Below are positions 36,827 to 52,953 of a DNA stretch of 64,000 nt, one piece after another. The notes beneath the pieces are model-generated. The model was not told the origin of the DNA. It searched no databases and saw only the letters and a list, made by a program, of their open reading frames with translations. This DNA is from an uncultured Lentisphaeria bacterium (GTDB lineage: Bacteria > Fidelibacterota > UBA8477 > JABMPR01): the NCBI GenBank assembly GCA_964454335.1, contig CAYVVT010000014.1, positions 8,858 to 72,857 on the forward strand, written 5' to 3'. How positions within the stretch are numbered: position 1 is the stretch's first letter; each line of letters begins with the position of its first letter. The translations under genes were made by a program, and so were the position numbers.

Positions 36827-38098
36827 CTAGGGAATGACGCCTACCCTGCAGGCCCCCTGCTCTCTCAGGTGGAGTATTTGAATAGCTTCCGCACCGATCA
36901 CAGATTCAATCATTAGCTTGAACTCATCAAAATCATCTTGATGGACATAAACCTGCATGGTACCAGCGAAGCCTCCGCCATGAACCCGGCCAACCCCTCT
37001 CCCCTTCATTTCGAAGAAAAGCTGAGACAGCCCGAGAGCGAAGGCTAATCCTTGTTCCACACCGTCCGAAAGTGGAGGTACAGTGTTCTGTAGAACATTC
37101 TGGGAGGATTGACCGCTGGCACTCACGATTGATAGGTACTCATCGAATGATCCACGGGAAAGTGTGGTGAGCATATTCTCGACTCGATCATTCTCATGAA
37201 AGAAATGAAATGCACGGAGAACTGCTCTGTCACCGTGCTTCTCTCGAAGTTCTTTGCTACGATTTATAAGATCAGTGATCGTACTATTCCTAAGATATTC
37301 TACGCCCAGATCTGCCGCGATCTTAGCCAGTTCTGTGGGAATTGAAGCGTAGGCATGGGTTAGATCATCATGGCTGCTCCCGGTGTTGACCGTAGCCAGG
37401 GTATACTCGGTTTTATCAAAATCAAAGTGCACATCCTTCAAGATCACATCGTCTGGATCTCTGAAGTCAATCAGTTGGATGCCGCCAAGCGCAGACGCCA
37501 TTTGGTCCATCAGTCCACAGGGCTTCCCGAAATACTCATTCTCTGCAAACTGACCAATTCGCGCAAGGTCAGGTGCCAGCACTCTGGAATCGTTGAAGAG
37601 TTCATTCAATATGGCAGCCAGCAAAACCTCAAAACTGGCTGATGATGACAGCCCTGACCCTATTCCAACCGTACTATGTACTACCGCATCAAATCCACCA
37701 CTGTCACCGCCCAGGTCATGCATTCCCTGGAGGACTCCTCTGAGCAGGGCCGAGCTGGTTTCTACCTCATCAGGGTGAGGATCAAGATCATCCAGTGAGA
37801 CTTCATAGCTTTCGTTAAGGTTCAGAGAATGAACTCTCGCAATCCTCTCCTCGATTTTACGTGCGAGTGCCAGACTATCCTGTTGGACGGCGGCGCACAA
37901 CACTTTCCCCCGGTTATGATCTGTATGATTGCCTCCAAGCTCAGTCCTGCCCGGGGCACTGATGAGTGTACCACCCTGCCTAAAGCTGGTTCTTAGCGAT
38001 TCTATCCTGGAAGAGATCTCTCGTCCTCCATCCAAGCCATACAGCTCTTTAAGGACACGGCCTTCGATATTGGGATCAATCATATTTAGTGCTTTCAT
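36827..38098 (-). CDS. galK: Galactokinase (GHMP kinase)
   Basis: GRTELGGNHTDHNRG matches the galactokinase signature region. The GHMP ATP motif GIGSGLSSSASFEVL is present. It is adjacent to galT. Confidence 0.85.
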   Translation of the reverse strand: MKALNMIDPNIEGRVLKELYGLDGGREISSRIESLRTSFRQGGTLISAPGRTELGGNHTDHNRGKVLCAAVQQDSLALARKIEERIARVHSLNLNESYEVSLDDLDPHPDEVETSSALLRGVLQGMHDLGGDSGGFDAVVHSTVGIGSGLSSSASFEVLLAAILNELFNDSRVLAPDLARIGQFAENEYFGKPCGLMDQMASALGGIQLIDFRDPDDVILKDVHFDFDKTEYTLATVNTGSSHDDLTHAYASIPTELAKIAADLGVEYLRNSTITDLINRSKELREKHGDRAVLRAFHFFHENDRVENMLTTLSRGSFDEYLSIVSASGQSSQNVLQNTVPPLSDGVEQGLAFALGLSQLFFEMKGRGVGRVHGGGFAGTMQVYVHQDDFDEFKLMIESVIGAEAIQILHLREQGACRVGVIP

Positions 38099-38109
38099 TT
38101 GATCGCCCG

Positions 38110-39132
38110 CTATTTGTTAATATCCTGAATGACGGATCGCAATCGTTCGGCGGCCGACTCAGGTGTCAAGTCTCTCTGCGCTTCCGCAAGCATCTCATAA
38201 CCTACCATGAACTTTCTCACTGTTGCCGATCTCAATAGAGGTGGATAGAAGTGGGCATGGAGTGTCCAAAACCCCTGTCCCTGCCGTGATCTGGGAACCT
38301 GGTGCCAACCCATGCTGAAGGGAAACTCTGTTGCGAAAAGATGATCATAACCGGACCAGAGTACTCTCAATGCTTCTTCCAGCTCGTCGATCTGCTGGTC
38401 ATCCAGATTCTCAAAGGTCTCAGTGTGTGCGCTAGGCAGGAGCAAGGTCTCAAAAGGCCAGACAGCCCAAAACGGCACCAGGATCACCCAGGAATCATTG
38501 CGATAAACAACCCTGTCAGCAGCCAGCAACTCGGAGTCCAGGTAAACCTGCAGAAGGGGCTTGGCATTGGAGCTGAAATACTCTGCCTGGTGCTTTACTT
38601 CCTTTTCGATCTCTGTCGGTTGGAAGTCACCCGCCCAGATCTGCCCATGTGGGTGTGGATTGGAAGCACCCATCAATGCGCCCCGGTTCTCAAACACCTG
38701 AACATACTCGTAGTCATTCAGTAAGCCCCTAGACTCCTGTTGCCAGGCAAGAATGACCTCTTTTCTCCCCTTGGGAGTAAGATTACCAAGTGAAAGGTCG
38801 TGTCTTGGTGAATAGCATATCACCCTTGACGTACCTGAAGCAGGCTGCCAGGTCAATACGCTATCTTCACCACTGATTTGACTGCCCTCCGGCAAAAGCG
38901 CGGGGAAGTCATTCGTGAACACGAATGTCTTGTCGTAATCAGGATTTGTGTCTCCATTCGCTCTCAGGTTGCCGGGACACAGGTAGCATTCTGGGTCATA
39001 TGCTTCAGCGGTTCCGGGAGCAACCTCATCCTGCTTTCCCTGCCATGGTCGTGCAGTTCGATGAGCGGAAACCAGCACCCATTCACCGGTTAAGGAGTTG
39101 TACCTTCGATGAGGTGTGTCCGGGATAGGCAT
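38110..39132 (-). CDS. galT: Galactose-1-phosphate uridylyltransferase
   Basis: The zinc site is CYLCPGN and the active-site HPH is in SNPHPHGQIW. The length is 340 aa. Confidence 0.9.
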   Translation of the reverse strand: MPIPDTPHRRYNSLTGEWVLVSAHRTARPWQGKQDEVAPGTAEAYDPECYLCPGNLRANGDTNPDYDKTFVFTNDFPALLPEGSQISGEDSVLTWQPASGTSRVICYSPRHDLSLGNLTPKGRKEVILAWQQESRGLLNDYEYVQVFENRGALMGASNPHPHGQIWAGDFQPTEIEKEVKHQAEYFSSNAKPLLQVYLDSELLAADRVVYRNDSWVILVPFWAVWPFETLLLPSAHTETFENLDDQQIDELEEALRVLWSGYDHLFATEFPFSMGWHQVPRSRQGQGFWTLHAHFYPPLLRSATVRKFMVGYEMLAEAQRDLTPESAAERLRSVIQDINK

Positions 39133-39150
39133 TTCCTGGCCGATGATGTT

Positions 39151-40785
39151 CTACCAGAAGATGGCATACAGCGCCACCAGGATTATGCTGATGATCACCG
39201 CGCTGATATTGAAAGCTGGTCCCGTTTTGAAATATTCCCGTGAAACGGGTATACCCTTTGGATCAGTATGACCTTTCCCTTCAATCTGGCTGATGATACC
39301 AATGATGACCATCGTCAGGATCCAGACGATCATCATCTGATGCATCCATGGCATCTCTGTTCCCAGTTTCAGGCCAAGTCCAATGGGGATCGATGATACA
39401 GCACCCCAGATAGCAGCATTGTTCGTCGATCGTTTATAGAACAGTCCCATCATAAATACCCCAAGAATACCAGGACTGACCAGCCCTGTGTACTCCTGGA
39501 TATACTGGAACATCTCTTTCACTGAACCGAGGGAGGGTGCAACGGCAACTGCGATCACCAGCGCTGCCAATACTGCGATCCGGCCAGTGGTCACTGTCTG
39601 CTTATCAGAAGCGTCCTTATTGATATAGGCTCGGTAGATATCCATTGTGAAGATTGTGGATGTGGAGTTCAACATGGAGGCCAAGGAGGATACAATCGCG
39701 GCTGATAGTGCTGCCAGAACCAGCCCTTTTAATCCCATCGGTACGAACTGGCTGATCAACCAGGGATATGCCTTGTCGTAGTTCACTCCACCCTCTCCTC
39801 TACTGAATGCCTCCGAGACGCCAGCAATTGGCGCAGTTCCATCAGGAGCCGTGAACATGACGTATGCGACAATTCCGGGAATGACTACGATCAGGGGTAT
39901 AATCAGCTTCAAGAAGGCGGCGAAGGCTATTCCCTTCTGTGATTCCTCAAGAGATTTGGCAGCAAAGGTCCGTTGAATAATGTATTGGTTGAATCCCCAG
40001 TAATACAGATTGGCAACCCACATACCCCCAACCAAAACAGCAATCCCAGGTAGATCCCCAAAGCTTGGATGCCCTTTCTTGAGGATCATATGAAAGTGTT
40101 CCCCCGCGGAATTGTAGATGTGGCTTAAACCATTCATCACACCACCATCCACCGTGACATGGTTCAGGGCGATCACGCTCGTGATCAACCCTCCTACGAT
40201 GAGCAGGATCACTTGGATCACATCAGTCCAGGCTACTGCAGAGAGCCCTCCCCAGATGGAATATGCAGCTGCAAAGAACGCAAGGGCCAGTATCCCGTGC
40301 ATGATGTATTCTCCGGTTCCAGTCCCCAGAATAGTGTCCAGAGCTTTGGCGCCGAGAAACAGGACTGAGGTAAGATTCACGAAAATGAAGAGACCGATCC
40401 AGAAAACCGCCAGGATGGTCTTCAGGTTCTTGCTATACCGGACCTCAACGAACTGTGGGATCGTGAATATCTTTTTCTCAATAAAGATGGGTAAGAAGTA
40501 CTTACCAACGATTATCAGGGTAAGGGCGGCCATCCACTCATAGGAGGCGATAGCCAGACCTAGAGAAAACCCTGATCCGGACATGCCAATGAATTGTTCA
40601 GCTGAGATATTCGCTGCAATAAGAGATGCACCGATGGCCCACCAGGGAAGCGACTTGCCTGCGAGGAAGTAGTCCTCAGCATTTTTCTGATGTCCCTCCT
40701 TGCTCCGGGATACCCAGAGTCCGACTGATACGATCGTGATGACATATGAGATAAAGACCACATAATCGAGTGCTGAAAATTGCAT
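39151..40785 (-). CDS. Sodium:solute symporter (SSS/SGLT family) sugar transporter
   Basis: 544 aa with ~13-14 TM. The N-terminal region DYFLAGKSLPWWAIGASLIAANISAEQFIGMSG is typical of the SSS family. It lies in the gal cluster. Confidence 0.85.
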   Translation of the reverse strand: MQFSALDYVVFISYVITIVSVGLWVSRSKEGHQKNAEDYFLAGKSLPWWAIGASLIAANISAEQFIGMSGSGFSLGLAIASYEWMAALTLIIVGKYFLPIFIEKKIFTIPQFVEVRYSKNLKTILAVFWIGLFIFVNLTSVLFLGAKALDTILGTGTGEYIMHGILALAFFAAAYSIWGGLSAVAWTDVIQVILLIVGGLITSVIALNHVTVDGGVMNGLSHIYNSAGEHFHMILKKGHPSFGDLPGIAVLVGGMWVANLYYWGFNQYIIQRTFAAKSLEESQKGIAFAAFLKLIIPLIVVIPGIVAYVMFTAPDGTAPIAGVSEAFSRGEGGVNYDKAYPWLISQFVPMGLKGLVLAALSAAIVSSLASMLNSTSTIFTMDIYRAYINKDASDKQTVTTGRIAVLAALVIAVAVAPSLGSVKEMFQYIQEYTGLVSPGILGVFMMGLFYKRSTNNAAIWGAVSSIPIGLGLKLGTEMPWMHQMMIVWILTMVIIGIISQIEGKGHTDPKGIPVSREYFKTGPAFNISAVIISIILVALYAIFW

Positions 40786-40794
40786 AAACGGTTC

Positions 40795-41082
40795 CTACTG
40801 TTCTATTCGTTCAAGGGGATTGTCTGCTGCCAGTGTTCCAAATCTATAGTTTATCCAGTGGACGTACTCCTCCCATGGGTTAAACCTCACTGAGGGAAAC
40901 GAGCCATGATTCGGAGCGTCGGGGTATTCTTGCAGTTCAAGACACACTACCTGTCTGGGGCTGAAGGTTCTCCCAAATTTTCCCGGTACCTCACCATTCA
41001 GAAAGTTGCTGGTATAAAGTTGTAGTCCCGGTGCTAAGTTATGAAATACGGTGGCCTCCTCTTGGGGAGCCTGCCTGCCCAA
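40795..41082 (-). pseudogene. galM: Aldose 1-epimerase (galM) C-terminal remnant
   Basis: Only ~95 codons are present (PGLQLYTSNFLNG...VCLELQEYPDAPNHGSFPSVRFNPWEEYVHWINYRFG). These match the last quarter of GalM-type mutarotases (~350 aa). The ORF begins at a TTG right after an in-frame stop. The 165 nt up to the next gene cannot encode the missing N-terminal ~250 aa. Confidence 0.6.
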
Positions 41083-41247
41083 GCGCCTTTGATCTTATCC
41101 AGCAGATCAGGCTTTTATAATTCAAGGATCTCGGAATTCGGGGGTTTGATCATGAGTACCAGCAGTATGATCCGGAAACATTCCATCGTGTCTCTACTCA
41201 TGGGATATCTCTCTTTCGAGTAGCGTAAAATGCTTGAATTTATGAGT

Positions 41248-42291
41248 TTAGTTTTCAGGCAGATGATAGATCTCCACAGACTGATAGAAATCACTCATAA
41301 TTGCATCTTTATCAAAATTTTCCCAAATAATGATCTTCCTGGGATTGTCAGGTTGATCAAGCCATGCACCTTCTACAAATTCTGGTGCAGGGATCTCCAC
41401 CCTATCCGCCCAGGTCGGATTCTTGATAATAGCCACAGCAGCCATGTCAAATAAGGGTCTGGAAGAATTCTCTTCTCTGAAATTCTTGAACAACGAGACT
41501 GAATAATCACCGAAGTTGTTGAAAGAGCCTCCGTGCCTTCCAATTACCTCACCAGCGATGTGCGGTCCTTTACCAGGCATGATCTCCCTTATATCTTTCA
41601 GGTATGCCTTGACTGCATCTGTACCAGTCTCTCTGTCATACCGTACCATGACCATCTCGAATTCGACATCGGATCCTAGAATCGGATCAATCGATGGGAT
41701 GTCGTTGTCAAAATTGTATTCGCCAGGTTCAGGGTAATTTGTGCCCAACCATACGATGCGCACCTTGGGGATAATTGTGGGATCTTTTGTGAGTGCCAGA
41801 GCAATGTTGGTCAGTTTACCCACCGGGACGAGCAGGAGTTTTCCCTCACGCTGTTCATGAGCCTGCTCTATAATAAAATCCACAGCTTCGGCACCATCGA
41901 ACGCTGGATTGTTTACACTGTCCTTGATCTCTTCATATGATGCGTTGGCACCCTTCAGGATCGGGACCTTTCCGGCCATACCACAGAGATTCACGACCCT
42001 GTCTGCTTCTTCCCAATGCTTCTGGATATCACCCCCGTTAAAGGTCTTGTTAACAGTGATACCCTTAACATCGAAGACGTGACTATTGAAAAGCATATAG
42101 GCGATGGCGTGCTGATCGTCCAATTCATTATTTGCATCTGTATCAAAAACCATTGGAATTCTGTCAGAGACAATGGTGGGTGGCATTTCCTCCGCGGATC
42201 TCGTAGCAGGGGTTTCAGGCGCTGAACCCGCACAGGATATAAGCGCAAAACAGATGATGACAGAGGTTAATAACCCTATGTTCTTTTTCAT
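41248..42291 (-). CDS. Nucleoside hydrolase (IUNH-fold) family lipoprotein
   Basis: Lipobox: FALISCAG. The N-terminal aspartate cluster is VFDTDANNELDDQHAIAYM, compared with the DxDxxxDD motif of inosine-uridine nucleoside N-ribohydrolases. Confidence 0.75.
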   Translation of the reverse strand: MKKNIGLLTSVIICFALISCAGSAPETPATRSAEEMPPTIVSDRIPMVFDTDANNELDDQHAIAYMLFNSHVFDVKGITVNKTFNGGDIQKHWEEADRVVNLCGMAGKVPILKGANASYEEIKDSVNNPAFDGAEAVDFIIEQAHEQREGKLLLVPVGKLTNIALALTKDPTIIPKVRIVWLGTNYPEPGEYNFDNDIPSIDPILGSDVEFEMVMVRYDRETGTDAVKAYLKDIREIMPGKGPHIAGEVIGRHGGSFNNFGDYSVSLFKNFREENSSRPLFDMAAVAIIKNPTWADRVEIPAPEFVEGAWLDQPDNPRKIIIWENFDKDAIMSDFYQSVEIYHLPEN

Positions 42292-42367
42292 GGTCAGTTG
42301 TCCTCATTTTTGCGTGTAAGCTGCATTCTACTATATCGAAGTACAGCGTTAGCGTTAATCCATCAGC

Positions 42368-43918
42368 TTAGTTTGAAACCAGTGGTTGTGAATCGTAGAT
42401 CAGAATATCGTACAGGTTCACATCGGCTGTGTCCGTCGGATTCTTCAATTTTAGCAGTACCGTATGATGTCCCTGGGGAAGTTGATATTCCCAGATCAGG
42501 TAGAAACGTCTTTCTTTAAAGCCCGTGGGGAGTTTTACCCTCTCGGAGAATTCACCATCGATAAAGACATCCACTTCAAACACGTAATTGTCCGTGCTGC
42601 CTACGTCAAGTTCCTCATCAGCCTTGTTCTTAGCCTCACCCATTACGACAAAGGCTATACCATCAAACTCGAACTCCAGAGTTTCACCCATGGCTTTGTC
42701 CAGAGGGATCTTTTCCTTGGGATAGTGTCCTTCGAAAGCGACTTCCAAGGGTACCGCTTCCGGTTGTTGCACTGCAATAGTCACTGAATTCTCATCAAAA
42801 GAACCACCATTTCGCTCGATCATCTCCAAGGCATGCCTAAAGGACATCTCGTAGGCATCATTCAGGCTGATGGTTGTGTATTTAAAGTCGATGGATTCTA
42901 CTTCAGCCAAACCCTGCTTCCAGTAGTCTGGAATACCATCATAACCTACGATGGTACCCAGCACACCACCGGCACTGGCGGGGTTGCAATCAGCGTCGTC
43001 CCCGCATCTGGTAGCGATCTCCAGGGTTTTACCGAAGTCACCGTCGCCATACAGGAGGCCCATGACAACCCAGGCAGCATTGATCTTCGCATCAATATTG
43101 AAAGGCGAGAAGACACCGTACGGTGAGCCTATTTCATCAGCCCATTTTGCATTCACCTTGGTCCAGTTGGCTGTCCAATCCGTAGGATCTTCTTTATGCC
43201 ACTTGATGACGTCAGATATGGTTTGAGCAAACGTACTCTTAGGCGGGATCGTCTTAAGGGCTTCTTCTACGATGAATTCGATGTCATCGTGAACAAAGGC
43301 CAGGGCATACAAAGCACCCACGTACACTCCACCGTACCAACCGTCACCATAATTCATGATGTGGCCGACACGATCGCTGATGGCGGATGCAGAATTCACC
43401 ATACCGGGATTCATGATACCGGCATAATCCGCTTCGATCTGGTAGTCGATATCATCCGCACAAGGATTATTCAACCAGTGCCCACTGGCTGGTGGTGCGA
43501 TACCATTGAGGATATTATTCCGGGCCTGCTGGTTTGCGAACCATAGATAATAATCGGCATTTGCAAAAGCATCGGCGAAAGATTGAGCAGGGGCATCCAT
43601 GCCCTCCTCATCCAGGACCTGGACAAAAGTCAGATCCATGTAGATATCATCATAGTAGCCCGGGGTATTGTCGTAGGTCTCTTTCAGGTAACCGTCATAC
43701 CAGGGGATCAGGGTGTCCGCAGGGATCATGGCACTGTTGAATTGGAACTCAACAGGACTTCCGTAGGTTACACCAATGGTCTGGGCTGCCCAGGCACCTT
43801 TGATCTTATCCTGCAAATCGACTTTGCTCAGCGTTACGGTCTCACCGTCGGGTTTTGCGGTGCAGGCAGCCAGAATTACAATAGTGAAGACTACTGGCAG
43901 AGAATTTGATACTTTCAT
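42368..43918 (-). CDS. ADP-ribosylglycohydrolase (ARH/DraG) family lipoprotein with C-terminal beta-sandwich-like domain (type A)
   Basis: The start is taken as ATG 43918 (MKVSNSLPVVFTIVILAACT, a lipobox). The ARH N-terminus is DKIKGAWAAQTIGVTYGSPVEF. The acidic metal motifs are YYDDIYMD and RCGDDADCNPASAGGVLG. Confidence 0.75.
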   Translation of the reverse strand: MKVSNSLPVVFTIVILAACTAKPDGETVTLSKVDLQDKIKGAWAAQTIGVTYGSPVEFQFNSAMIPADTLIPWYDGYLKETYDNTPGYYDDIYMDLTFVQVLDEEGMDAPAQSFADAFANADYYLWFANQQARNNILNGIAPPASGHWLNNPCADDIDYQIEADYAGIMNPGMVNSASAISDRVGHIMNYGDGWYGGVYVGALYALAFVHDDIEFIVEEALKTIPPKSTFAQTISDVIKWHKEDPTDWTANWTKVNAKWADEIGSPYGVFSPFNIDAKINAAWVVMGLLYGDGDFGKTLEIATRCGDDADCNPASAGGVLGTIVGYDGIPDYWKQGLAEVESIDFKYTTISLNDAYEMSFRHALEMIERNGGSFDENSVTIAVQQPEAVPLEVAFEGHYPKEKIPLDKAMGETLEFEFDGIAFVVMGEAKNKADEELDVGSTDNYVFEVDVFIDGEFSERVKLPTGFKERRFYLIWEYQLPQGHHTVLLKLKNPTDTADVNLYDILIYDSQPLVSN

Positions 43919-43967
43919 GCTGGGGAACCTTCTTATGTATGATTTATCATGTTTGTGGGTCTTGACA

Positions 43968-45992
43968 TCATCTTGGCAATGGTGCATGGACAGCTAACTC
44001 GGCAACAGAAGTGAAATGGGTGATCTTGCTGAACCAATGCTGCACTCCTGCAGCACCACCCCGAATGCGGATCGCCTTGGTAGTCACGGGCTCAAAGGTG
44101 ATCATGTGTCTTACAAAGTGCGGTTTATTGTAACGTTGTTCACCAGGAGTAAAGGGGGGTGTGATTTCTAATCCCTTGGCCTCTCGCCACATTCCATTCT
44201 TATCCTGGTATTCCACGAGCAGGGACGTGAACCAACCACCATTCTCTTCTACTGCTCCTGTGTGAAGATCCATCACACCAATATACTGGGGATTCTCCCA
44301 CCGGAAACCATAGTAGTCCTCTGTCTTAGTAGTGTCAGAGCCAATGCTGTAAAAACTGGAGCCCTCTCCCCGGACTTTCCCATCCCGGATCACCTCGACA
44401 TCATTCGCGTAAATGGAATGACCCACGGTAAGCCACATGGCATCCCGTCTCTCTTGATCCGTATGTGTAATTGTTGCCAGAACAGCACTTGCACTGGGGG
44501 CAAGGTTTGGTCCATTGACGACGATAGTGAATTGCCGATCTATATGTTTTTCCCCCTGACCTACCTGGATGTTAACGGGAAAGATCCCCGCTGATGTGGG
44601 CACCCCTTCAAGTCTGCCGTTCTTAAACTGCAAGCCCTTCGGCAGGTCACCGGAAAGAAGGTTCCAGGTAAATGGAGCCTGACCACCGGAAACCTGAATG
44701 GTGTAATCCACGTTTTTCCCGACCTCTGTTCGGGGCATAGGTGCACTCGGGAATTCCAGGGGTGCGATAAAAACAGCGTCGGGATTGATGAGATAGAATA
44801 CCTCTCCATTCTCAGTGAGCTTTCTACCACCGTGTAAAAGGATGATCTCCTCGGCATGCGCAGCCATGCGACCTGCCATATCCTTGATGCTGGCGTCGGG
44901 CATATCATACCGCGATACATTAATATATCGATCATTGAAAGGCTCATCCCATTCCAGATCCGGAAAGGGCCGCAGCAGATCATCGGGTAAATCATCAGTC
45001 CCCAGGATAACACCTAGAAGGCCGCTCATGGTAGCGGCCTGATTATCGGCATCAAAGCCCATGGCACAGGCAAGATCCAGGGTCTTTCGAAAGTCCCCTT
45101 TCCCGTATAGCAGCGCCAGGATCCCTGCAGCCCCGTTGAGATTTGCATTCCAGATGGTCTTTGTATCTGGGGATTCGTTATGGTAGAACTCATCTGACAT
45201 TTCAGATCGAGCCGCTTGCCAGTTGTCCGGATATTTATGATGCAGGAACTTCATTTTTTCTACTGTTCCACCGAAGCGACTGCCTGCTGGCAGCGCTGCA
45301 GTCCCGATATCGATGAGGGTGGGAATGTCAGACTCAAAAAATGCAGCTGCATACATGGCACCATAATGGATGGTGGGTTCAATACCCCAGTCATCATTCG
45401 TGATCCTGGCCGCCCAGGCAGATTTGCCGGCAGCATATTTCACCATCCCCGGAGAGGTCACCGCCCATACTTCGTTCACCAGTTGGGGATCGATCTGAAA
45501 CCAGTGAGGATTAATGTCCTTGAACCCCGTTACCGGAGGTGTGTAACCATAATGCATTGCTGAGACGGCAGCACGGTTTGCCAGCCAGACCCGGCTGCGT
45601 ACGTGGTGCAGCCAGCGCTGGGTCAGATCCCCATAGCTAGGCTCGGGACCTTTCTCGTCCATGGTAAGGAGATACATATACTCGATATCAGTATCATCAT
45701 CTGAAAAAGCTCCGTCGACCTCTTTCATATACCCTTTTGGACCACCCCGATAACCATAAGGAAAATCCTCAGGTCCTGGTTCATCTATATAGGCATTCTC
45801 ATGGGGTAGACCATAGATGTTACCGATGATCTGGGCCAACCAGGAGGAATAGATCTTATCTGAAAGTTCTGCCTGAGAAATTTTTAACAATTCAGGGCTT
45901 TGACATGCACTCAACCCAAGCAATACCACCATGGGAATACTCACCAGAACGAACAGTCTCACGAGTATTCCCATGTAGTTTTTTAGAGACAT
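43968..45992 (-). CDS. ADP-ribosylglycohydrolase family lipoprotein with Ig-like and discoidin/CBM-like C-terminal domains (type B)
   Basis: Lipobox: LLGLSACQ. ARH motifs are AFSDDDTDIEY and AMGFDADNQAATMSGLLG. A putative Ig domain is GGQAPFTWNLLSGDLPKGLQFKNGRLEGVPT. The C-terminal ~150 aa look like a sugar-binding beta-sandwich. Confidence 0.7.
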   Translation of the reverse strand: MSLKNYMGILVRLFVLVSIPMVVLLGLSACQSPELLKISQAELSDKIYSSWLAQIIGNIYGLPHENAYIDEPGPEDFPYGYRGGPKGYMKEVDGAFSDDDTDIEYMYLLTMDEKGPEPSYGDLTQRWLHHVRSRVWLANRAAVSAMHYGYTPPVTGFKDINPHWFQIDPQLVNEVWAVTSPGMVKYAAGKSAWAARITNDDWGIEPTIHYGAMYAAAFFESDIPTLIDIGTAALPAGSRFGGTVEKMKFLHHKYPDNWQAARSEMSDEFYHNESPDTKTIWNANLNGAAGILALLYGKGDFRKTLDLACAMGFDADNQAATMSGLLGVILGTDDLPDDLLRPFPDLEWDEPFNDRYINVSRYDMPDASIKDMAGRMAAHAEEIILLHGGRKLTENGEVFYLINPDAVFIAPLEFPSAPMPRTEVGKNVDYTIQVSGGQAPFTWNLLSGDLPKGLQFKNGRLEGVPTSAGIFPVNIQVGQGEKHIDRQFTIVVNGPNLAPSASAVLATITHTDQERRDAMWLTVGHSIYANDVEVIRDGKVRGEGSSFYSIGSDTTKTEDYYGFRWENPQYIGVMDLHTGAVEENGGWFTSLLVEYQDKNGMWREAKGLEITPPFTPGEQRYNKPHFVRHMITFEPVTTKAIRIRGGAAGVQHWFSKITHFTSVAELAVHAPLPR

Positions 45993-46151
45993 TAGATCCT
46001 AGCTTATGCTTCCTTTACGAATGGCATCATCCATCAATGGAGCCCCACGGGTTCGCCGCGGTCATCCTCTATGCGCGAAGGGCGACATCGCGCCGAAGCA
46101 GATGTCAAGACATTCCTCCCCGAGAAAACTCGGGGTTTCCTGTCCGCAAGC

Positions 46152-47084
46152 CTACGCAGTAGGCTCGCGGAGGCGGATGAATGCCTGAAGTTGTTCAAGC
46201 GTCGGCATCGAGGGCTGGGCACCCAGCTTTGTGGCCGACAGGGCACCTGTCATGTTGGCAAATTGGACAGCTTCCTGAATAACCATGCCGCTAGCTAAGG
46301 CATAGGCCAAGGCACCATTGAAGGCATCCCCTGCAGCGGTAGTATCCTGGGCTGTGATGGTCTTCGACGGTATCATCGTCGCAAGATCCTCTGATAACAG
46401 AAAAGCCCCCTGTGAACCCATGGTAACAATGACGGTTTCTACACCCCGCTCCTGAAGAACGCGTGCAGCCTGTTCCGCTGAAGCTGCATCTGTTACCGTG
46501 TGCCCGGTGAGGAGTTGAAGCTCCGTTTCATTAGGCGTGATAATAGAGATCGATCTTAACAGTTCATCACTCAGGTCCGCAGCGGGAGCAGGATTCAAAA
46601 TCACAGTTACATTGTTCTGGTCCGCGATTTCCGCCGCAGCCTGCACCGTCTCCAGGGGGATCTCCAGCTGCATGAGCAGGACCTTCGATGCGGCGATCTG
46701 ATCCCCAGCTTTTCCGACATCGGTGGGAGCTAGGTGGTTATTTGCACTCGAAGCAACAGCGATGCAATTTTCTCCGTTGTCATCAACGAAAATGAGTGCG
46801 ACGCCTGATGGATTGACCGGATCTACACTGACGTGTTCGACGTCAATTCCATCTTTGCGAAAATTCTCAATTGCTTCACTGCCAAAAATATCTGTACCCA
46901 CTCGAGCTACGAATGTGACCTCTCCCCCCAGCCGGGCAGCGGCCACGGCCTGATTAGCACCTTTACCGCCGGCGGCCTTTATGAAATCCCCACCCAACAA
47001 GGTTTCACCGGGCTTGGGGAGGCGTTGCATTTTGATTACCATGTCAGTGTTGGAGCTACCAATGACGACAATAGGTTCACTCAT
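46152..47084 (-). CDS. rbsK: Ribokinase (PfkB family)
   Basis: The motifs are GGKGANQAVAAARLG and DTTAAGDAFNGALAYAL (PfkB signature 2). Confidence 0.85.
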   Translation of the reverse strand: MSEPIVVIGSSNTDMVIKMQRLPKPGETLLGGDFIKAAGGKGANQAVAAARLGGEVTFVARVGTDIFGSEAIENFRKDGIDVEHVSVDPVNPSGVALIFVDDNGENCIAVASSANNHLAPTDVGKAGDQIAASKVLLMQLEIPLETVQAAAEIADQNNVTVILNPAPAADLSDELLRSISIITPNETELQLLTGHTVTDAASAEQAARVLQERGVETVIVTMGSQGAFLLSEDLATMIPSKTITAQDTTAAGDAFNGALAYALASGMVIQEAVQFANMTGALSATKLGAQPSMPTLEQLQAFIRLREPTA

Positions 47085-47117
47085 TTTACTTAGATCCTAG
47101 CTTCGGTTATGGATATG

Positions 47118-48119
47118 TCAGGCAATGCGTGCGTAGATGATCATTGCCAAGCCGATCAAATAGAACGCGAACATTGCGGCAAGCAATTTACCCGTGCCGG
47201 CGGGCGCCTCTTTGAACTCTTTCCATATAAACACACCCCAGAATGCTCCAACGAGCGTCGCCCCTTGACCCAGGCCATAAGAGATGGCAAATCCTGCAGC
47301 CCCGGCGGTGATGATGGAGAAAGCCATGCCCACGCCCCAGATGCCACCCCCCAGAATACCGATGGCATGCAGCTGTGGTGTACCCTGACTGAAGTAATCG
47401 CTATACTTAAGGGGTTCACCCGTCAACGGCTTTTTCATGAAGATGGTATTCCAGATGAAGTTGGAAAGCAGAACACCCACTGAAAAGACCACCAGGGCCG
47501 TGTAGGGGCTCAATTTCCCCGGTGCCAGATTGATGAAATCCGCGGACATGGATGCAGCGACAAATCGGTAAAAGAAACCCATGATGATACCGGCTGCGAT
47601 GGAAAGGACAATCCCCTGTTTGGTTGCCTTTTTTGCCCCGGGAAGTTTGCTATAAGCCCATGCATCCAAAAGAATTGCCAGCACTACGAATGCAACACCG
47701 ATGAAGAGGATCAGTGCATCACCTACCGGTGTCGCGACATAGTTCGTAACAACACCAATTACCAGAGCCAGACCTACTCCCACTGGAAAGGCCACAGCCA
47801 TTCCGGCGATATCAATGGCCGCAACCAGCAGGATGTTGGACAGGTTGAAGATGATCCCGCCCAGAAGCGCCAAACCAAGAGATTTGCCTGACGCCTGGCC
47901 GAGATCTGCAAAAAAGCTGCGTCCAGCGTCACCAATGCTACCCATGGTGAAGGCCAGCACCAGCGAAAGCAGCAACACGCCTATGGCATAATCCCAATAG
48001 TAGAGCTGAAATGCCCACTTCTTACTGGCCAGTTTTTGTGTATTGGCCCATGACCCCCAGCATAACATGGTGACAAAAAGCATCACGACGGCAAGGGTAT
48101 ACGATTCAACAACAAACAT
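47118..48119 (-). CDS. GRP-family (glucose/ribose uptake, DMT superfamily) sugar permease
   Basis: 333 aa, ~10 TM. The N-terminus is VVMLFVTMLCWGSWANTQKL. It is adjacent to ribokinase. Confidence 0.65.
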   Translation of the reverse strand: MFVVESYTLAVVMLFVTMLCWGSWANTQKLASKKWAFQLYYWDYAIGVLLLSLVLAFTMGSIGDAGRSFFADLGQASGKSLGLALLGGIIFNLSNILLVAAIDIAGMAVAFPVGVGLALVIGVVTNYVATPVGDALILFIGVAFVVLAILLDAWAYSKLPGAKKATKQGIVLSIAAGIIMGFFYRFVAASMSADFINLAPGKLSPYTALVVFSVGVLLSNFIWNTIFMKKPLTGEPLKYSDYFSQGTPQLHAIGILGGGIWGVGMAFSIITAGAAGFAISYGLGQGATLVGAFWGVFIWKEFKEAPAGTGKLLAAMFAFYLIGLAMIIYARIA

Positions 48120-48153
48120 AGAAATGTCCTCTCATATTTGGTTACATGATGTT

Positions 48154-49788
48154 CTAGTTCTGTTCAGCATCCTGGGTATACACAATGGCCCGGGAGACCA
48201 TTGTGGCACTACCTGTCGCCGCTTCATTCTTTTCATCACTGATGACCAGGCGTATGTGGTGCTCATCCTCTTCGAGCCCCATAACGTGGAATAGATGGGT
48301 GGAGTTCAACCAGCCTGAGCCAGCACCGTGGCCATCAACAAAGTAATAGTTGTCTATCTGCCGGGCAAACACATCATCAACATAAACATCAGCCTTGCCC
48401 CCATACTGGTCCCAATGACCCATGAGCAACGCTCCCGTCCCCGTGAATGTGAAGGTGAACTCCGAGCCCGGCTGTTCACTGTACATAAGCTCTTCAGAAC
48501 CGCCCCAGGGATCTTTGATCTCCTTCAGCTTCCAGTCTCCGTTCCAGGTCCACCCTTCTTCTTCAAAGATCGTACTGCGATAAGCGGCTTTGATACCGGG
48601 GAAGGATTGCTCCAGGGGGGGTGCGAGGGGTTGCTGGGTCTTGATGTAAAACATATCATTCTTCACACTACCACCATTCTTCAGTACGATCTCCTCGGCA
48701 TAATGGAGCGTCCTCTCGACAACTGAATTAAACGAATAATCCGTGTAAATGAATTTCTTGTCGGCAATTTCAGGAATGTGCTGTTTGAGCTCCGCAGGGA
48801 TCTTATCATAACCCAGGATGATCCCCAATACACCGGCGGCATTCGATGGATTGCAATCTGAATCCTGACCGCAGCGTGTACTATACTCCAGAGTCTTCAT
48901 GAAATCACCTTCGCCGTACAAGAGACCAATGACGATGTATGCCCCATTGACCTTTGCATCGATGTTGAAATCATCGAGAGCTCCGCAGATATCGTCTTCA
49001 CCCCAGCGGTCCTGAATGATCTGCCAAGTCGCCGTCCAGTCTTCCGGATTGGCCTTGTGTCCATCGATGACATCCTGAATGCACATGGCGTACTTGCTCT
49101 CTGCGGGGATCGACTGCAGAGCTTTCGCTATGATCGTGGGAATGTCATTTTCGAAATAGGATTCAGCATATAGGGCGGCAACAAACATACCGCCATAAAC
49201 GCCATCACCATAATTCATGACATGACCTACAACATCGCACATTTTGTTGGAATGTTGAGGCATCCCCGGATTCATGAAGCCGATATAATCCGCTTCGATC
49301 TGGAAGTCGATGTCATCAGCGTGCAGACTGTATTGGGGATTGCCGGCATCAGGCGGCATAATGCCATCCCAGAAATTTTTCCGGCCCTTTCGATTGGCAT
49401 GGAAAAGCATATAGCCGGCATTGGCAAATTCCTCAGCATATTGAGCGCCAGTCGCATCGAGCCCATACTTGTCCATGGCCATCATAAAACTCATCTGAAC
49501 ATATAGGTCATCCTGGCTGATGGCTTCTTTCAGAGAAGCGGGATCAAAGGGAATGTCATATTCGATTATTTCACCCTGACGGCTGAATTCCGTCCAACCA
49601 CCATAGCTGACGCCGATCATTTTACCTGCCCAGCCACCTGCGATCTTATCCCTGAGTACCGCGCGGGGGATCTGCTTTATATCTGACGCAGTCTCTTCAG
49701 TTGTGGAGCGAGGCTGGGAGCAGCTGTTCAACAAGAATAGCCCCAGGCATATCGTGGTAACGATGGTCAATAGGTTCTTATTCCTCAC
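48154..49788 (-). CDS. ADP-ribosylglycohydrolase family lipoprotein (type A paralog)
   Basis: Lipobox: LFLLNSCS. The N-terminus is DKIAGGWAGKMIGVSYGG. Motifs are SQDDLYVQM and RCGQDSDCNPSNAAGVLG. It is collinear with 42368-43918, at roughly 45-50% identity by eye. Confidence 0.75.
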   Translation of the reverse strand: MRNKNLLTIVTTICLGLFLLNSCSQPRSTTEETASDIKQIPRAVLRDKIAGGWAGKMIGVSYGGWTEFSRQGEIIEYDIPFDPASLKEAISQDDLYVQMSFMMAMDKYGLDATGAQYAEEFANAGYMLFHANRKGRKNFWDGIMPPDAGNPQYSLHADDIDFQIEADYIGFMNPGMPQHSNKMCDVVGHVMNYGDGVYGGMFVAALYAESYFENDIPTIIAKALQSIPAESKYAMCIQDVIDGHKANPEDWTATWQIIQDRWGEDDICGALDDFNIDAKVNGAYIVIGLLYGEGDFMKTLEYSTRCGQDSDCNPSNAAGVLGIILGYDKIPAELKQHIPEIADKKFIYTDYSFNSVVERTLHYAEEIVLKNGGSVKNDMFYIKTQQPLAPPLEQSFPGIKAAYRSTIFEEEGWTWNGDWKLKEIKDPWGGSEELMYSEQPGSEFTFTFTGTGALLMGHWDQYGGKADVYVDDVFARQIDNYYFVDGHGAGSGWLNSTHLFHVMGLEEDEHHIRLVISDEKNEAATGSATMVSRAIVYTQDAEQN

Positions 49789-49856: not shown

Positions 49857-50888
49857 CTAATTCATTCCAAGACCAATGGTGAACATGTGTACCAGACCCA
49901 GGCGTCCAAACGGAACCAGAGCATAATTTATGGCTGTTCCATATTTGCCTGTGGCCAGGTTTACCCCTCCACCAAAGCTTAGAGCTTCTTCAGCATAACC
50001 ATAGCGGTATCCAGCGCGGAGAACCGCTCGATCCCTGAAGCTGTACTCCAGACCCATGTTTAGTTTCTCTGGTCCATCGTTGGGATGTGATCCTTCGATG
50101 GAGATGCCAACAACATGAGGACTGCCTGCAGATTCCAGCAGGTTCATCGAGACTCCAATACGGAAGTCAATGGGCATGCGAATATCTACAGGTTCTGCCT
50201 GGATGGTTTCATCCCAGCCTGCCAGCTGTTGATCCCCACCAAGATTCCGGGCCACCATCGCCAGACGTAACGAACGATATCCCGTTTCATAGGTGGTACC
50301 AAAATCGATTGAGACATTACTCATACTTAGATCAGCCACAGTTTCTTCGATGTACCGGATATTACCACCAAGCGCGAGTCTATCGGTCACCTGCCGAGCA
50401 TATGATATACCAGCTGCGATATCGCCACCGGTATATGTTTCACCAGTAATAACCGCCTCTGTCACAGTTGTACCGGATATCCCCCGGTTGATCGTAACTG
50501 GAATATCGCCGATGTCCAACGATGCCACGCTCAATGCAAATACACCCCTGCGACCAAAACCTTTTGCCAGTGATAGGGTCTGATATCCAATATCGGCAAA
50601 CCAATTTACCTGCCCAAAAGAGACAGAGATGTTGGTTACATCGACCAAAGCCGATGGATTGCCAAAGACAGCTCCGGCATCCCCCTTGGAGTTCGCAATG
50701 AAAGAGCCACCTAGAGCAGCATGTTTCGCATTAGCTGTAATTTTGAGGAATTGCCACCCAGACAACCCGACACGTTCAAGATCATATGGTTCGAGACCAG
50801 GTTGTGCATTCACACCCGTAAGCATAACCAAGCCAACCAATAATGTATGACATGCAAGCTTGACGATTCTTTTAAACTGCATATCCAC
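49857..50888 (-). CDS. PorV/PorQ-like (FadL-like) outer-membrane beta-barrel protein
   Basis: It has a signal peptide. ANAKHAALGGSFIANSKGDAGAVFGNPSAL resembles the N-terminal motif of PorV/PorQ-family barrels. The amphipathic strands alternate, and the C-terminus is aromatic-rich (HMFTIGLGMN). Confidence 0.5.
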   Translation of the reverse strand: MDMQFKRIVKLACHTLLVGLVMLTGVNAQPGLEPYDLERVGLSGWQFLKITANAKHAALGGSFIANSKGDAGAVFGNPSALVDVTNISVSFGQVNWFADIGYQTLSLAKGFGRRGVFALSVASLDIGDIPVTINRGISGTTVTEAVITGETYTGGDIAAGISYARQVTDRLALGGNIRYIEETVADLSMSNVSIDFGTTYETGYRSLRLAMVARNLGGDQQLAGWDETIQAEPVDIRMPIDFRIGVSMNLLESAGSPHVVGISIEGSHPNDGPEKLNMGLEYSFRDRAVLRAGYRYGYAEEALSFGGGVNLATGKYGTAINYALVPFGRLGLVHMFTIGLGMN

Positions 50889-50940: not shown

Positions 50941-52953
50941 CTACCTGATAATGGCGAATTTCCCAACGAAACTCTCCCCCTTTGATCCCTCGGCATGAGA
51001 TTCAACATGATAAACGTAGAACCCGGGGCTGATATACAGGTACCACTTATTCGTTTGATAATCGGCGTTCAGAATACTACCCCAGGATTCTGATCCACTG
51101 CCATCATCGTGCTCAATGGTCTGAACAAGGTCACCGGCGATGGTGTAGATCCTGATCGTACAAACTGATGGAACCCCTATGAATTCCATACGCAGGTCTT
51201 CATTGGAGCCGGTCAGACCGCTATGTTGGCGGAAGGGATTCGGGACAACATGAACACGTTCCCTTGGAAACTCCGTATTCGGTGATCGTATAGGGTATTC
51301 CGGATAGCGGTTTTCATTGACCAGTCCACTTTCATTACCATCGCTATCGTAACTGGTCACTCCGTAGTACAATCCTACACCGAATGGTTGCCCAGTATCC
51401 TGGTAAACAGCGTTTTCATCCTCAATGGTCAATTCATCAAGTGCAATATCACCGATTAACTCCCAGGGGCCGGTGGCAAAATAGGATGATCGATAAATTC
51501 TGTAGCCGGCCAGATCGTTGATCCCTAGATCAGGATCGGTATATGTATCAGGAATTGGCGGCCAGGCGATCTCCATGCCCCCGACTATGGGAGTAAGGAT
51601 CAGGGTATTCTCTTTATTGGTTGGTGTTGGAGGTGGGTCGACGGTCTCGTAGCCGTTGGCATATAGCTCACGAGCAGCTGCAACGTTTGCAAACAGTGAA
51701 TCGCGTGAGGCGGTTGCCAGGAGATTAACATTGTCCACGCCACCTTCCACGATGTTCGCACGATCCATCTCGCCAAGTACTTCAGCAAAGACCACTGTTT
51801 CCGACTCACCAGCAGCGATGCTTAGAGGTCCTACCGAGACGATGTACTCTGGATTCCGCTCATATTTGTTGCCACCTTCACCACCTGCCGCTCTGGCCTC
51901 ATCCCACGACATACGCGGTTGTTGATGGGTCATGGCCGTCTTGTATTCCTCTGGCTGACTTGTAGTTAGATATACAAATCTATCCTCGGCCGGCTCCTCC
52001 CAGGGAGAGGTACCCTGCCCCTGATTTGTGATGATGTTCATATAAACGTTGGCATCTGCCGAATCCAATACCATCAACGCATAGTATGCGGGTGCAAGCA
52101 GTTCATGGTTCTGGGCTCCCGACTCATACAGATCATTCGGATCACCAATATCCCCTGTTACAGGCCCCGGGCCATAGTTGAAGGTTACTTCAACTTCATC
52201 TTCCCAGCTGAAACTGCGATCATCATAGAAATAGAAAATGTTATGCTCGTCACTCCAGTCGTATTTATCGTCATTATCTTCACCAGGCCCTTGATAAATA
52301 CCTCTCATCGTATTCATGATACCGCGTCTTAAACCGAAATAAACCTCGGTCAAGGGAGTAGAGCCTGTATTTGTAATAGTGAACTCGTGGATGACGAAAT
52401 CATCATATTGGGGATAACTCCACACCATGGCCTTCTCTGCAACATCAACGTCCAAAGAAACAACGTGGTGAGCTCCCTCAACAATTTCCTCAGCTAACAA
52501 GCTGGGATCTTCCATGTTATAATTCTTCGTAAGAGAAGTGGTCACTGTCGGATACACATACTGCTGGGCGGTTGCGAACCTGCTAGTGATTGTATACGCT
52601 TCGGCGTTGCCCTCCCGTTCGCCATAGATAGCATATCCACCGGTATCGAGGTAGGATGGTTTATCACTGTTATCTACACCGGATGAGTGACCGGGATAAT
52701 CGAGTGTATAGAAAGGCCAGGGAATGTCAACCGGCCCAAGTGTACCCGCGTTGTTGATCGTCACCCATACTTTAGCTCTGGTCATACTCTTTTTTACCCA
52801 ATAGGCAGTCTGTCCGTAAAGACCCGACCCCATTCCGAAAAGCACAAGTCCGACTACGAACGTTTTAAGCAATCCAAGTCGCTGCATGCGGCTGGTATTC
52901 CGTAAACTCATATTCTTCCTCATAATTTTATAAAAGCTGACTTTGGTTGACAT
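50941..52953 (-). CDS. Large secreted hypothetical protein with T9SS/FlgD-Ig-like C-terminal domain
   Basis: An N-terminal hydrophobic signal region is present (LLKTFVVGLVLFGMGSGLYG). The C-terminus (VVPNPFRQ...CTIRIYTIAGDLVQTI...GFYVYHVE...GKFAIIR) resembles a T9SS sorting domain. The start codon is uncertain because there are several in-frame Met codons. Confidence 0.5.
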   Translation of the reverse strand: MSTKVSFYKIMRKNMSLRNTSRMQRLGLLKTFVVGLVLFGMGSGLYGQTAYWVKKSMTRAKVWVTINNAGTLGPVDIPWPFYTLDYPGHSSGVDNSDKPSYLDTGGYAIYGEREGNAEAYTITSRFATAQQYVYPTVTTSLTKNYNMEDPSLLAEEIVEGAHHVVSLDVDVAEKAMVWSYPQYDDFVIHEFTITNTGSTPLTEVYFGLRRGIMNTMRGIYQGPGEDNDDKYDWSDEHNIFYFYDDRSFSWEDEVEVTFNYGPGPVTGDIGDPNDLYESGAQNHELLAPAYYALMVLDSADANVYMNIITNQGQGTSPWEEPAEDRFVYLTTSQPEEYKTAMTHQQPRMSWDEARAAGGEGGNKYERNPEYIVSVGPLSIAAGESETVVFAEVLGEMDRANIVEGGVDNVNLLATASRDSLFANVAAARELYANGYETVDPPPTPTNKENTLILTPIVGGMEIAWPPIPDTYTDPDLGINDLAGYRIYRSSYFATGPWELIGDIALDELTIEDENAVYQDTGQPFGVGLYYGVTSYDSDGNESGLVNENRYPEYPIRSPNTEFPRERVHVVPNPFRQHSGLTGSNEDLRMEFIGVPSVCTIRIYTIAGDLVQTIEHDDGSGSESWGSILNADYQTNKWYLYISPGFYVYHVESHAEGSKGESFVGKFAIIR

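Follow-up and report, generated by a model that had tools for sequence, protein, structure and literature searches.

The locus described here lies in a 64,000-nucleotide stretch of DNA from an uncultured bacterium (contig CAYVVT010000014.1, positions 8,858 to 72,857; hereafter the window), and its central feature is a group of four genes of the ADP-ribosylglycohydrolase (ARH) family, two of type A (ARH-A1, ARH-A2) and two of type B (ARH-B1, ARH-B2). Three of the four are closely spaced with genes for a ribokinase, an inner-membrane permease, a TonB-dependent receptor and a lipoprotein of the IUNH fold. Between about 60.7 kb and 36.8 kb every substantial gene is carried on the minus strand, and as far as the IUNH-like gene the order of transcription is LamG+GH32, LacI, CBM4_9 with a type IX secretion system (T9SS) sorting domain, receptor, 670-residue protein, PorV-like protein, ARH-A1, permease, ribokinase, ARH-B1, ARH-A2 and IUNH-like. 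The genes that carry the argument are the following.

57227 to 58276, minus strand: LacI-family regulator (Pfam LacI and Peripla_BP_1/3)
52984 to 56010, minus strand: TonB-dependent outer-membrane receptor, first gene of the proposed operon (Pfam CarboxypepD_reg 70.5 bits, Plug 28 bits)
50941 to 52953, minus strand: secreted 670-residue protein of no known family, with a weakly T9SS-sorting-like C-terminus
49857 to 50888, minus strand: outer-membrane beta-barrel of the PorV/PorQ family (NF033709 PorV_fam 156 bits, cut-off 90)
48154 to 49788, minus strand: ARH-A1, predicted lipoprotein (PF03747 101.7 bits, lipobox LNSC)
47118 to 48119, minus strand: inner-membrane permease assigned to the drug/metabolite transporter (DMT) superfamily, Ureide_permease/GRP-like (PF07168 81 bits)
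46152 to 47084, minus strand: ribokinase (TIGR02152 366 bits)
43968 to 45992, minus strand: ARH-B1, predicted lipoprotein with ARH, Ig (He_PIG) and CBM32/discoidin-like domains (PF03747 97.9 bits, He_PIG 30 bits)
42368 to 43918, minus strand: ARH-A2, predicted lipoprotein, second of type A (PF03747 121.8 bits, lipobox LAAC)
41248 to 42291, minus strand: IUNH-fold, N-ribohydrolase-like predicted lipoprotein (PF01156 79 bits, lipobox LISC)
41070 to 41177, minus strand: remnant of another ARH-A-type gene, from its 5' end (tblastn against ARH-A2)
62697 to 64000, minus strand: ARH-B2, N-terminus past the window edge (PF03747 95.9 bits over 62697-63893)

From the receptor to the IUNH-like gene the gaps are 30-159 bp throughout, and terminators made of a hairpin and a T-run lie 3' of the GH32 gene and of the CBM4_9/T9SS gene, so the receptor-to-IUNH run looks like a single operon. 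A TATAAT-like box precedes the receptor start, and the hairpin and T-run after the preceding gene lie upstream of the receptor; scans for sigma-70 promoters and terminators were, overall, at chance level. The coordinates and gene calls of the four ARH genes and their neighbours, as given in a first-pass annotation made from the sequence alone, were re-checked and are unchanged, and the clustering of ARH genes with an IUNH-fold lipoprotein, a ribokinase and a TonB-dependent receptor that it had described takes the form of this tightly spaced run.

Exported proteins of the ARH fold

Membership of the ARH family is clear from the Pfam model ADP_ribosyl_GH (PF03747), against which the four genes score 96-122 bits (cut-off 26.2). 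The two type A proteins are 40% identical to each other and the two type B proteins 39%, while profiles of the two types are 27% identical (hhalign E 4e-45). AlphaFold models of ARH-A1 (pLDDT 92, pTM 0.89) and ARH-B1 (pLDDT 88.5) have the ARH fold, and their best Foldseek matches are ARH3, DraG, MJ1187 and Tri1, with probability 1.00 and target-normalised TM-scores of 0.55-0.74; ARH-A1 aligns with ARH3 (6g1q) at E 4e-7 and a TM-score of 0.67, and it is the N-terminal domain of ARH-B1 that matches Tri1 and ARH3. Identity to the classical enzymes in these alignments is about 10-17%. Single-sequence phmmer searches of the Protein Data Bank (PDB) with ARH-A1 and ARH-B1 gave no matches, and the ARH profile reached MJ1187 and ARH3 there only weakly (E 5e-4 to 0.08) and over the DxD motif only. 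Set against the value of 4e-45 between the two types, these E values of 5e-4 or worse set the exported ARH-A and ARH-B proteins apart from the ARH proteins in the PDB, as a clade of their own.

The metal site is retained in both types. In ARH-A the residues E67, D93-D94 and D309-x-D311-C312-N313 are invariant across 45 homologues, and in ARH-B the corresponding E65, D98-D100/D102 and D314-x-D316-N317 are invariant in an alignment of 47. The second acidic motif aligns with D314/D316/T317 of ARH3, the threonine being replaced by cysteine in type A and by asparagine in type B. More than 60 positions besides the metal ligands are also invariant across these 45-47 homologues, which are 50-77% identical and come from several phyla; such wide invariance is a pattern typical of an active site under selection.

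C-terminal to the catalytic domain, which in ARH-A1 spans residues ~37-370, lies a beta-sandwich (~374-540) that Foldseek places closest to the C-terminal domain of BT_2959 (3nqh) and that may also be described as CE2_N-like. The C-terminal part of ARH-B1 resembles an Ig+CBM32 tandem found in the M. viridifaciens sialidase, as well as carbohydrate-binding modules of family CBM32, with TM-scores up to 0.77. The structural neighbours of this CBM32-like domain are galactose binders, from which a galactose link would be speculative. ARH-B2 has a C-terminal extension of ~95 residues without Ig or discoidin domains.

All four ARH proteins are predicted to be exported. Signal peptides and lipoboxes were read by eye from the translations, and LNSC (ARH-A1), LAAC (ARH-A2) and LSAC (ARH-B1), as well as LISC in the IUNH-like protein, follow hydrophobic N-termini. 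The ARH-A2 open reading frame runs to 43987, and it is the start at 43918 (MKVSN) that yields a signal peptide with LAAC. The lipobox cysteine is at least 90% conserved among the 45 ARH-A homologues. ARH-B2 is complete on the parent contig of 79,666 bp (L093; loci and proteins of the comparison set are given by their L and P numbers), where it is 478-491 residues long with a signal of the signal peptidase I type, MRYLRILTCTLFAMVLLTNTVYA followed by KE. Among 348 homologues, a crude regular-expression heuristic finds a hydrophobic N-terminus in ~90% and a lipobox in about half; homologues elsewhere also carry T9SS sorting domains or choline-binding repeats. The first-pass annotation had proposed four ARH-family genes in two pairs, lipoprotein signals in the three with complete N-termini, export of the group and retention of both acidic motifs, and all of this is borne out; the additional C-terminal domains that it ascribed to every copy are found in the ARH-A proteins and ARH-B1 but not in ARH-B2, where there is the short extension alone.

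The remnant listed above lies in the 462-bp spacer that separates the IUNH-like gene from a downstream sodium:solute symporter gene (SSF). Its translation reads FRIILLVLMIKPPNSEILEL, then an in-frame stop, then KPDLLDKIKGAWAGR, and corresponds to a signal peptide and first helix; in a tblastn search confined to the spacer it is 47% identical to residues 11-46 of ARH-A2 (E 1e-7). The remnant suggests the loss of a fifth ARH gene.

Ribose uptake genes and the conserved gene set

Assignment of the ribokinase is at equivalog level (TIGR02152, cut-off 299.65; NF008353 360 bits, cut-off 341), and the protein aligns without gaps over 299 residues with E. coli RbsK at 47% identity, the GSxNxD, GGKGANQAVAA and AAGD motifs being aligned. 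The permease gene, separated from it by 33 bp, had been called a GRP-family sugar permease. Its profile matches place the product in the DMT superfamily, but the score against the GRP profile (PF06800) is 25.5 bits, under the cut-off of 26.3, the TIGR00776 RhaT/GlcU match is weak, and the significant Pfam match is to Ureide_permease. Its putative role is ribose import.

ARH-A has at least 8000 relatives, counted as clusters at 90% identity, with members 50-63% identical across Neomarinimicrobiota, Latescibacterota, Bacteroidota and other groups, and an exhaustive profile search of 50%-identity clusters returned 9847 at E<=1e-3, 4279 at 1e-10 and 1070 at 1e-30. For a census of linkage, one genome per species was considered (at least 595 genomes with an ARH relative) and 80 loci were taken, 47 of them with full flanks; neighbours were detected by tblastn of the window proteins within 10 kb, and counts refer to full-flank loci from other species. 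A ribokinase lies within 10 kb of ARH-A in 37 of the 47 (79%), and the permease, usually adjacent and with orthologues 55-67% identical, in 33. The IUNH gene was found in three. Conserved linkage of ARH, ribokinase and nucleoside hydrolase, as foreseen in the first-pass annotation, thus holds strongly, and across phyla, for the ribokinase and likewise for the permease; the link to the IUNH-like gene is that of a minority of loci, and ARH::IUNH fusions support it.

The same annotation had advised looking for the gene set in other genomes, and the core is indeed shared by loci of Latescibacterota (L002), Neomarinimicrobiota (L092), KSB1 (L088), Acidobacteriota (L012) and Bacteroidota (L001 and L004). 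The Latescibacterota locus has ARH, IUNH, permease and PfkB genes; that of a Neomarinimicrobiota single-cell genome has LacI, permease, ARH, ribokinase, ARH-B and ARH; the KSB1 locus has four ARH genes with a permease and PfkB; and in the Bacteroidota loci the ARH-A, permease and ribokinase orthologues are placed behind SusC/SusD. A relative 76% identical reproduces the order LacI, receptor, 654-residue protein, PorV-like, ARH-A, permease, ribokinase, ARH-B and ARH-A2, without IUNH or GH32. The best named homologues of the window proteins are from Marinimicrobia (IUNH-like, 75%) and Neomarinimicrobiota (ARH-A 62%, ARH-B 61-62%). With no rRNA, tRNA or Rfam element to go by, it is on these matches that the host is placed, most likely in Marinimicrobia/Neomarinimicrobiota.

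Gene fusions tie parts of the locus together more directly. ARH-A and IUNH domains occur as one polypeptide in P0066 (839 residues) and P0072, and the window IUNH-like gene is orthologous to the C-terminal half of P0066. A marine member of the Flammeovirgaceae (L004) encodes a 1182-residue ARH::beta-helix::PKD::T9SS-tail protein, the beta-helix part of which is homologous to the window gene at 61078-62391. These are two independent Rosetta-stone fusions. In more distant members of the clade the ARH domain is joined to GH43, GH92, GH106, GH84 or esterase+CBM48 domains, or to Peptidase_C26, LamG, PKD or discoidin domains, T9SS tails or choline-binding repeats. This is the way in which carbohydrate-active enzymes (CAZymes) use their modules, and it shows an extracellular location in both Gram-negative and Gram-positive hosts. 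In one ARH-A-clade protein, P0405 (783 residues), the fusion partner is a Peptidase_C26/class-I glutamine amidotransferase-like domain, which misfits a simple glycan interpretation.

The IUNH-like protein belongs to the IU_nuc_hydro family (PF01156, cut-off 34.2 bits). Residues of the calcium and ribose site (D50, D52, D58, D59, N162, E191, N193 and D282) are invariant in an alignment that includes RihB and RihC, and the N-terminal Asp cluster reads DTDANNELDD in the window protein, with a two-residue insert. The base-protonating catalytic histidine (RihB H239, RihC H233) is replaced by Phe281, and among 26 locus-type homologues the position is Phe in 22 and Tyr in four. Together with the weak nucleosidase activity of a related exported enzyme, RusNH (see below), this hints at a non-nucleoside ribofuranoside as substrate. 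Purine-specific nucleoside hydrolases use an aromatic-stacking mechanism, and the IUNH-like protein may do so instead. In L004 (11548-12957) an N-terminal SnoaL-like domain is fused to an IUNH-like domain, and a GDSL esterase gene ends that locus.

At the head of the operon, the SusC/RagA model TIGR04056 matches only the N-terminus of the receptor (57 bits, cut-off 368), and scans with Pfam and NCBIfam found no SusD_RagB domain in the locus and no match for the 670-residue protein. The receptor, the 670-residue protein and the PorV-like protein form a triad that is conserved in relatives (L083-L087) and stands where SusC/SusD stand in Bacteroidota versions; a SusC/SusD census by tblastn across loci was too insensitive a method for counts. 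The triad may be a SusD-independent capture module, in which the 670-residue protein, perhaps anchored by way of T9SS, may partner the receptor at the surface. With a TonB-dependent receptor present, the substrate should be larger than ribose alone, and the receptor together with surface T9SS proteins points to an oligomeric one.

In L083/L084, L092, L004 and L006 the matching gene set likewise has a LacI gene directly upstream, and the LacI-family protein of the window probably regulates the operon. A LacI-type palindrome, TGAACAATCGTTTGTGCA, at 58307-58324, stands ~30 bp before the start codon of the LacI gene and may serve as an operator for autoregulation.

Possible substrates of the ARH proteins

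The locus is read here as a polysaccharide-utilization-locus (PUL)-like ribose-utilization operon of the rus type, the ribose-induced PULs of Bacteroidetes, in a non-Bacteroidota bacterium of the Fibrobacterota-Chlorobiota-Bacteroidota (FCB) group, with exported hydrolases of the ARH and IUNH folds that would release non-phosphorylated ribose; a probability of roughly 0.6 is given to this reading. An extracytoplasmic, ribose-releasing, PUL-like system had been suggested by the first-pass annotation, and the evidence supports it, the release of ribose itself being deduced from context. From that context we infer, too, a glycan rather than an ADP-ribose conjugate as the target, as well as the cellular face on which the ARH proteins act.

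In the proposed pathway, a ribose-containing oligomer or glycoconjugate would be captured at the cell surface, for which the CBM4_9/T9SS protein and the 670-residue and PorV-like proteins are candidates, and taken up by the TonB-dependent receptor. Membrane-anchored ARH-A1, ARH-A2 and ARH-B1 and the IUNH-like lipoprotein would then trim it, in the periplasm or at the surface, by hydrolysing its non-phosphorylated ribosyl (ribofuranoside) linkages, probably with assistance from the nearby GH136-like beta-helix protein and ARH-B2. The DMT permease would carry free ribose across the inner membrane, the ribokinase would convert it to ribose-5-phosphate, and the LacI-family repressor would control the operon. 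Such a pathway ends in a step that requires ribose with its 5-OH free, and scans with Pfam and NCBIfam found no phosphatase, pyrophosphatase, Nudix or nucleotidase gene in the operon; non-phosphorylated ribosyl linkages are therefore the most likely target of the ARH enzymes, ahead of ADP-ribose conjugates. The ADP-ribose polymers that had been listed among candidate substrates are accordingly a poor fit, with no phosphatase or pyrophosphatase in the operon to feed the ribokinase. The CBM32-like and beta-sandwich modules and the glycoside hydrolase fusions provide a glycan context that is counted in favor of the same reading. A broader proposal, that ARH-A and ARH-B constitute unrecognised metal-dependent glycoside hydrolase families of the ARH fold, exported ribofuranosidases that would strip non-phosphorylated ribose from glycans or glycoconjugates containing it and would be used as CAZyme modules in many phyla, is put forward more tentatively, at somewhat less than an even chance.

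Several observations weigh against a ribose-releasing role. Classical ARH enzymes act on 5''-phosphorylated ADP-ribose. The best profile match of the permease is to the ureide (nucleobase-type) family. About a fifth of the full-flank ARH-A loci are without a nearby ribokinase, ARH-B is found alone in L089 and L090, and the variable neighbours include GH32, GH127, sulfatase, FGE-sulfatase and esterase genes, so that some members of the family may cut something other than ribose. When a recurrent LacI operator was sought, TGAACAATCGTTTGTGCA proved to be present in a single copy, with none before the receptor operon and a count at chance level. Ribofuranosidase activity is proposed from sequences and models, and a literature search (ribofuranosidase; ARH with Marinimicrobia; later work on rus or exported ARH) found no enzymatically characterised member of the clade. 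In the rus system of B. thetaiotaomicron, moreover, RusNH and RusGH have weak activity and are dispensable, for which reason the natural substrates of rus systems were reported as unknown (10.1101/574913).

It is conceivable that the ARH lipoproteins keep classical chemistry and act on ADP-ribose conjugates from detritus (ADP-ribosylated proteins, poly(ADP-ribose), O-acetyl-ADP-ribose or alpha-NAD+), with ribose freed by enzymes encoded elsewhere. The conserved PF03747 domain, the ARH3/DraG/Tri1 fold and the E...DD...DxD metal site would all be expected of such enzymes, and B. thetaiotaomicron uses ADP-ribose in a rus-dependent manner (10.1101/574913). Yet the permease and ribokinase require free ribose as the product, no pyrophosphatase, phosphatase or nucleotidase is encoded in this operon or in related ones, identity to ADP-ribose-acting enzymes is 12-16% with profile similarity confined to the DxD motif, and the CBM32-like and beta-sandwich modules and the GH43, GH92, GH106 and GH84 fusions point to glycans; this explanation is considered unlikely. 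Slightly less likely again is removal by the ARH proteins of a non-ribose residue or decoration, such as another furanoside, from a complex and possibly sulfated or esterified glycan, in which case the ribokinase and permease would reflect one product only, or ribose sensing. Neighbouring genes for GH32 (window and L001), GH127 (L088) and sulfatase/FGE-sulfatase and esterases (L083, L088, L093 and L004) would suit such a target, as would the glycoside hydrolase fusions in the clade and the solitary ARH-B genes. It is the ribokinase, however, that is the most constant neighbour of ARH-A, often adjacent to it and in at least five phyla, and the operon contains neither a kinase nor an isomerase for any other sugar.

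Scavenging of nucleosides or nucleic acids, in which the IUNH-like and ARH-like proteins would cut N-glycosidic bonds in the periplasm, ribose would be imported and phosphorylated and the ureide-type permease might carry the base, appears less probable still. It draws on IU_nuc_hydro membership with an intact calcium and ribose site, on the Ureide_permease match, and on the classification of ADP-ribosylglycohydrolases (ADP-RGH) and nucleoside hydrolases (NH) by Glowacki and colleagues as "nucleoside cleaving enzymes" (10.1101/574913). Against this, the catalytic histidine is Phe or Tyr in 26 of 26 locus-type IUNH homologues, the conserved core of the loci is ARH, ribokinase and permease rather than IUNH (three of 47), no nuclease or phosphatase lies in the locus, and the glycan-binding modules and glycoside hydrolase fusions are left unexplained; exported RusNH itself cleaves p-nitrophenyl-beta-D-ribofuranoside, is a poor nucleosidase and is not needed for growth on nucleosides (10.1101/574913). 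A last alternative, that the ARH-like lipoproteins retain the fold only and serve as non-catalytic binding proteins, is consistent with their lipid anchors and carbohydrate-binding-type C-terminal domains, as in surface glycan-binding proteins, but the invariance of the metal ligands and of so many further positions across several phyla makes it very improbable.

The ribose-releasing reading is of interest beyond this locus. Ribose-utilization PULs matter for gut colonisation, and the exported ARH clade is very large, tied to ribokinase and part of multidomain proteins of CAZyme-like design. The hypothesis that ARH-fold ribofuranosidases form a family that attacks ribose-containing glycans in the environment is concrete and directly testable; to our knowledge no CAZy family has the ARH fold. 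If it is correct, the glycoside hydrolases would gain a new fold, and a carbon source that bears ribose would be indicated for marine and sediment systems.

Neighbouring genes and related systems

Further genes flank the operon on both sides.

61078 to 62391, plus strand: right-handed beta-helix lipoprotein with a GH136-like N-terminus (lipobox AISC, structure matches to GH136)
58722 to 60752, minus strand: LamG+GH32 lipoprotein (Pfam Laminin_G_3, GH32N and GH32C)
56222 to 57082, minus strand: secreted CBM4_9 protein with T9SS sorting domain (CBM_4_9 29 bits, Por_Secre_tail 27.5 bits, TIGR04183 41 bits), followed by a hairpin terminator
36827 to 40785, minus strand: SSF sodium:solute symporter, galT and galK (Pfam SSF, GalP_UDP_transf, GHMP/GalKase)

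The ~85 N-terminal residues of the beta-helix lipoprotein match GH136 lacto-N-biosidases (7v6m and 5gqc, E 9e-14; NF047897 LnbX), this N-terminal cap being the only part that aligns; a Beta_helix match is faint, and matches to chondroitinase B and DUF5123 are weak and below cut-offs. Homologues adjoin ARH-A in L001, L003, L004 and L006, and the protein is a candidate glycan-cleaving partner. The GH32 gene is followed by a 13-bp hairpin and T-run at 58630-58663; a repeat, TTGCGCAA, considered there as a separate element, was rejected, as it represents the two arms of this hairpin. A LamG-GH32 gene 53% identical to that of the window is found near the ARH::IUNH locus of a Bacteroidota metagenome-assembled genome (L001, 11094-16316), which has a second GH32, while none is present in L083-85, L092 or L004, and the tie of LamG+GH32 to the ARH system is uncertain. 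Because of its own terminator and its absence from most related loci, a fructan target suggested by GH32 was set aside. The SSF-galT-galK genes follow the operon on the same strand, after the 462-bp spacer, as an adjacent Leloir module that may be unrelated to the ribose operon; a galactose link drawn from these genes and the CBM32-like domain was also considered, and the arrangement is found only in the window's own lineage.

On the parent contig (L093, 13193-19666) the genes upstream of ARH-B2 encode a family-less secreted protein of 475 residues, a sulfatase and a PorP/SprF protein, and they include one more large gene. In L083-85 and in the KSB1 locus L088, the ARH cluster has esterase genes and genes with an FGE-sulfatase domain on its flanks. 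Such neighbours hint at a sulfated or esterified substrate. The G+C content is 0.55-0.57 in the left 18 kb of the window and 0.45-0.50 in the remainder; the high-G+C part encodes a NuoF-like fused Fe-S flavoprotein, Fe-S proteins and three PQQ/BamB-like beta-propeller proteins. A bias between gene classes, horizontal acquisition of a region or a join in the assembly could each account for the drop.

With the classical ARH enzymes (DraG, ARH1, ARH3, Tri1 and MJ1187) the window proteins share PF03747, the all-helical fold and the Glu, Asp-Asp and Asp-x-Asp-(Thr/Cys/Asn) ligands. Unlike them, they are predicted to be exported and mostly lipid-anchored, have carbohydrate-binding-type C-terminal domains, and are found in linkage with ribose uptake genes, not with ADP-ribosyltransferases or nitrogenase. 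The IUNH-like protein shares the PF01156 fold, the Asp cluster and the Asn/Glu/Asp ligands with E. coli RihA/B/C and RusNH, and RusNH is likewise exported; the window protein differs from RihA/B/C in lacking the catalytic histidine, in being a predicted lipoprotein and in having relatives fused to ARH-A or SnoaL. In operon composition alone, the locus resembles E. coli yegTUV, which comprises a nucleoside-type transporter, the ARH-family protein YegU and the PfkB kinase YegV, and so the same triad of transporter, ARH-family protein and PfkB kinase; YegU, unlike the window proteins, is cytoplasmic, and the yegTUV transporter and kinase are of other families. A 2024 article gives the function of yegTUV as still undefined (PMC10819704).

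The closest parallel is with the rus PULs of Bacteroidetes, of which Glowacki et al. described about 70 configurations, made up of ribokinase(s), a permease, SusC/D, RusR or LacI and variable enzymes (10.1101/574913, subsequently in Cell Host Microbe, 2020). LacI is the second most common type of regulator among them, ADP-ribosylglycohydrolases and nucleoside hydrolases are named as recurrent rus enzymes, and an ADP-RGH of B. xylanisolvens served as a rus search query (10.1101/574913). The unconventional use of ARH proteins in a PUL-like locus that the first-pass annotation perceived therefore describes a real locus but has a precedent, the presence of these two enzyme classes in ribose PULs being already in print for Bacteroidetes (10.1101/574913). 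The likeness between rus (BT2802-09) and the window is one of gene content: ribokinase, permease, TonB-dependent transporter, regulator and exported enzymes are shared, the ribokinase and permease genes are adjacent and LacI stands next to the locus, whereas there is no SusC/SusD pair and the receptor is followed by the 670-residue secreted protein and the PorV/PorQ-like protein. In contrast to rus, moreover, the window has four ARH genes and a relic, a single ribokinase and a probable Marinimicrobia host. What is new is thus a SusD-less, non-Bacteroidota version with a fourfold ARH expansion and a relic, together with the scale of the exported ARH clades, their spread over phyla and their CAZyme-like modular build.

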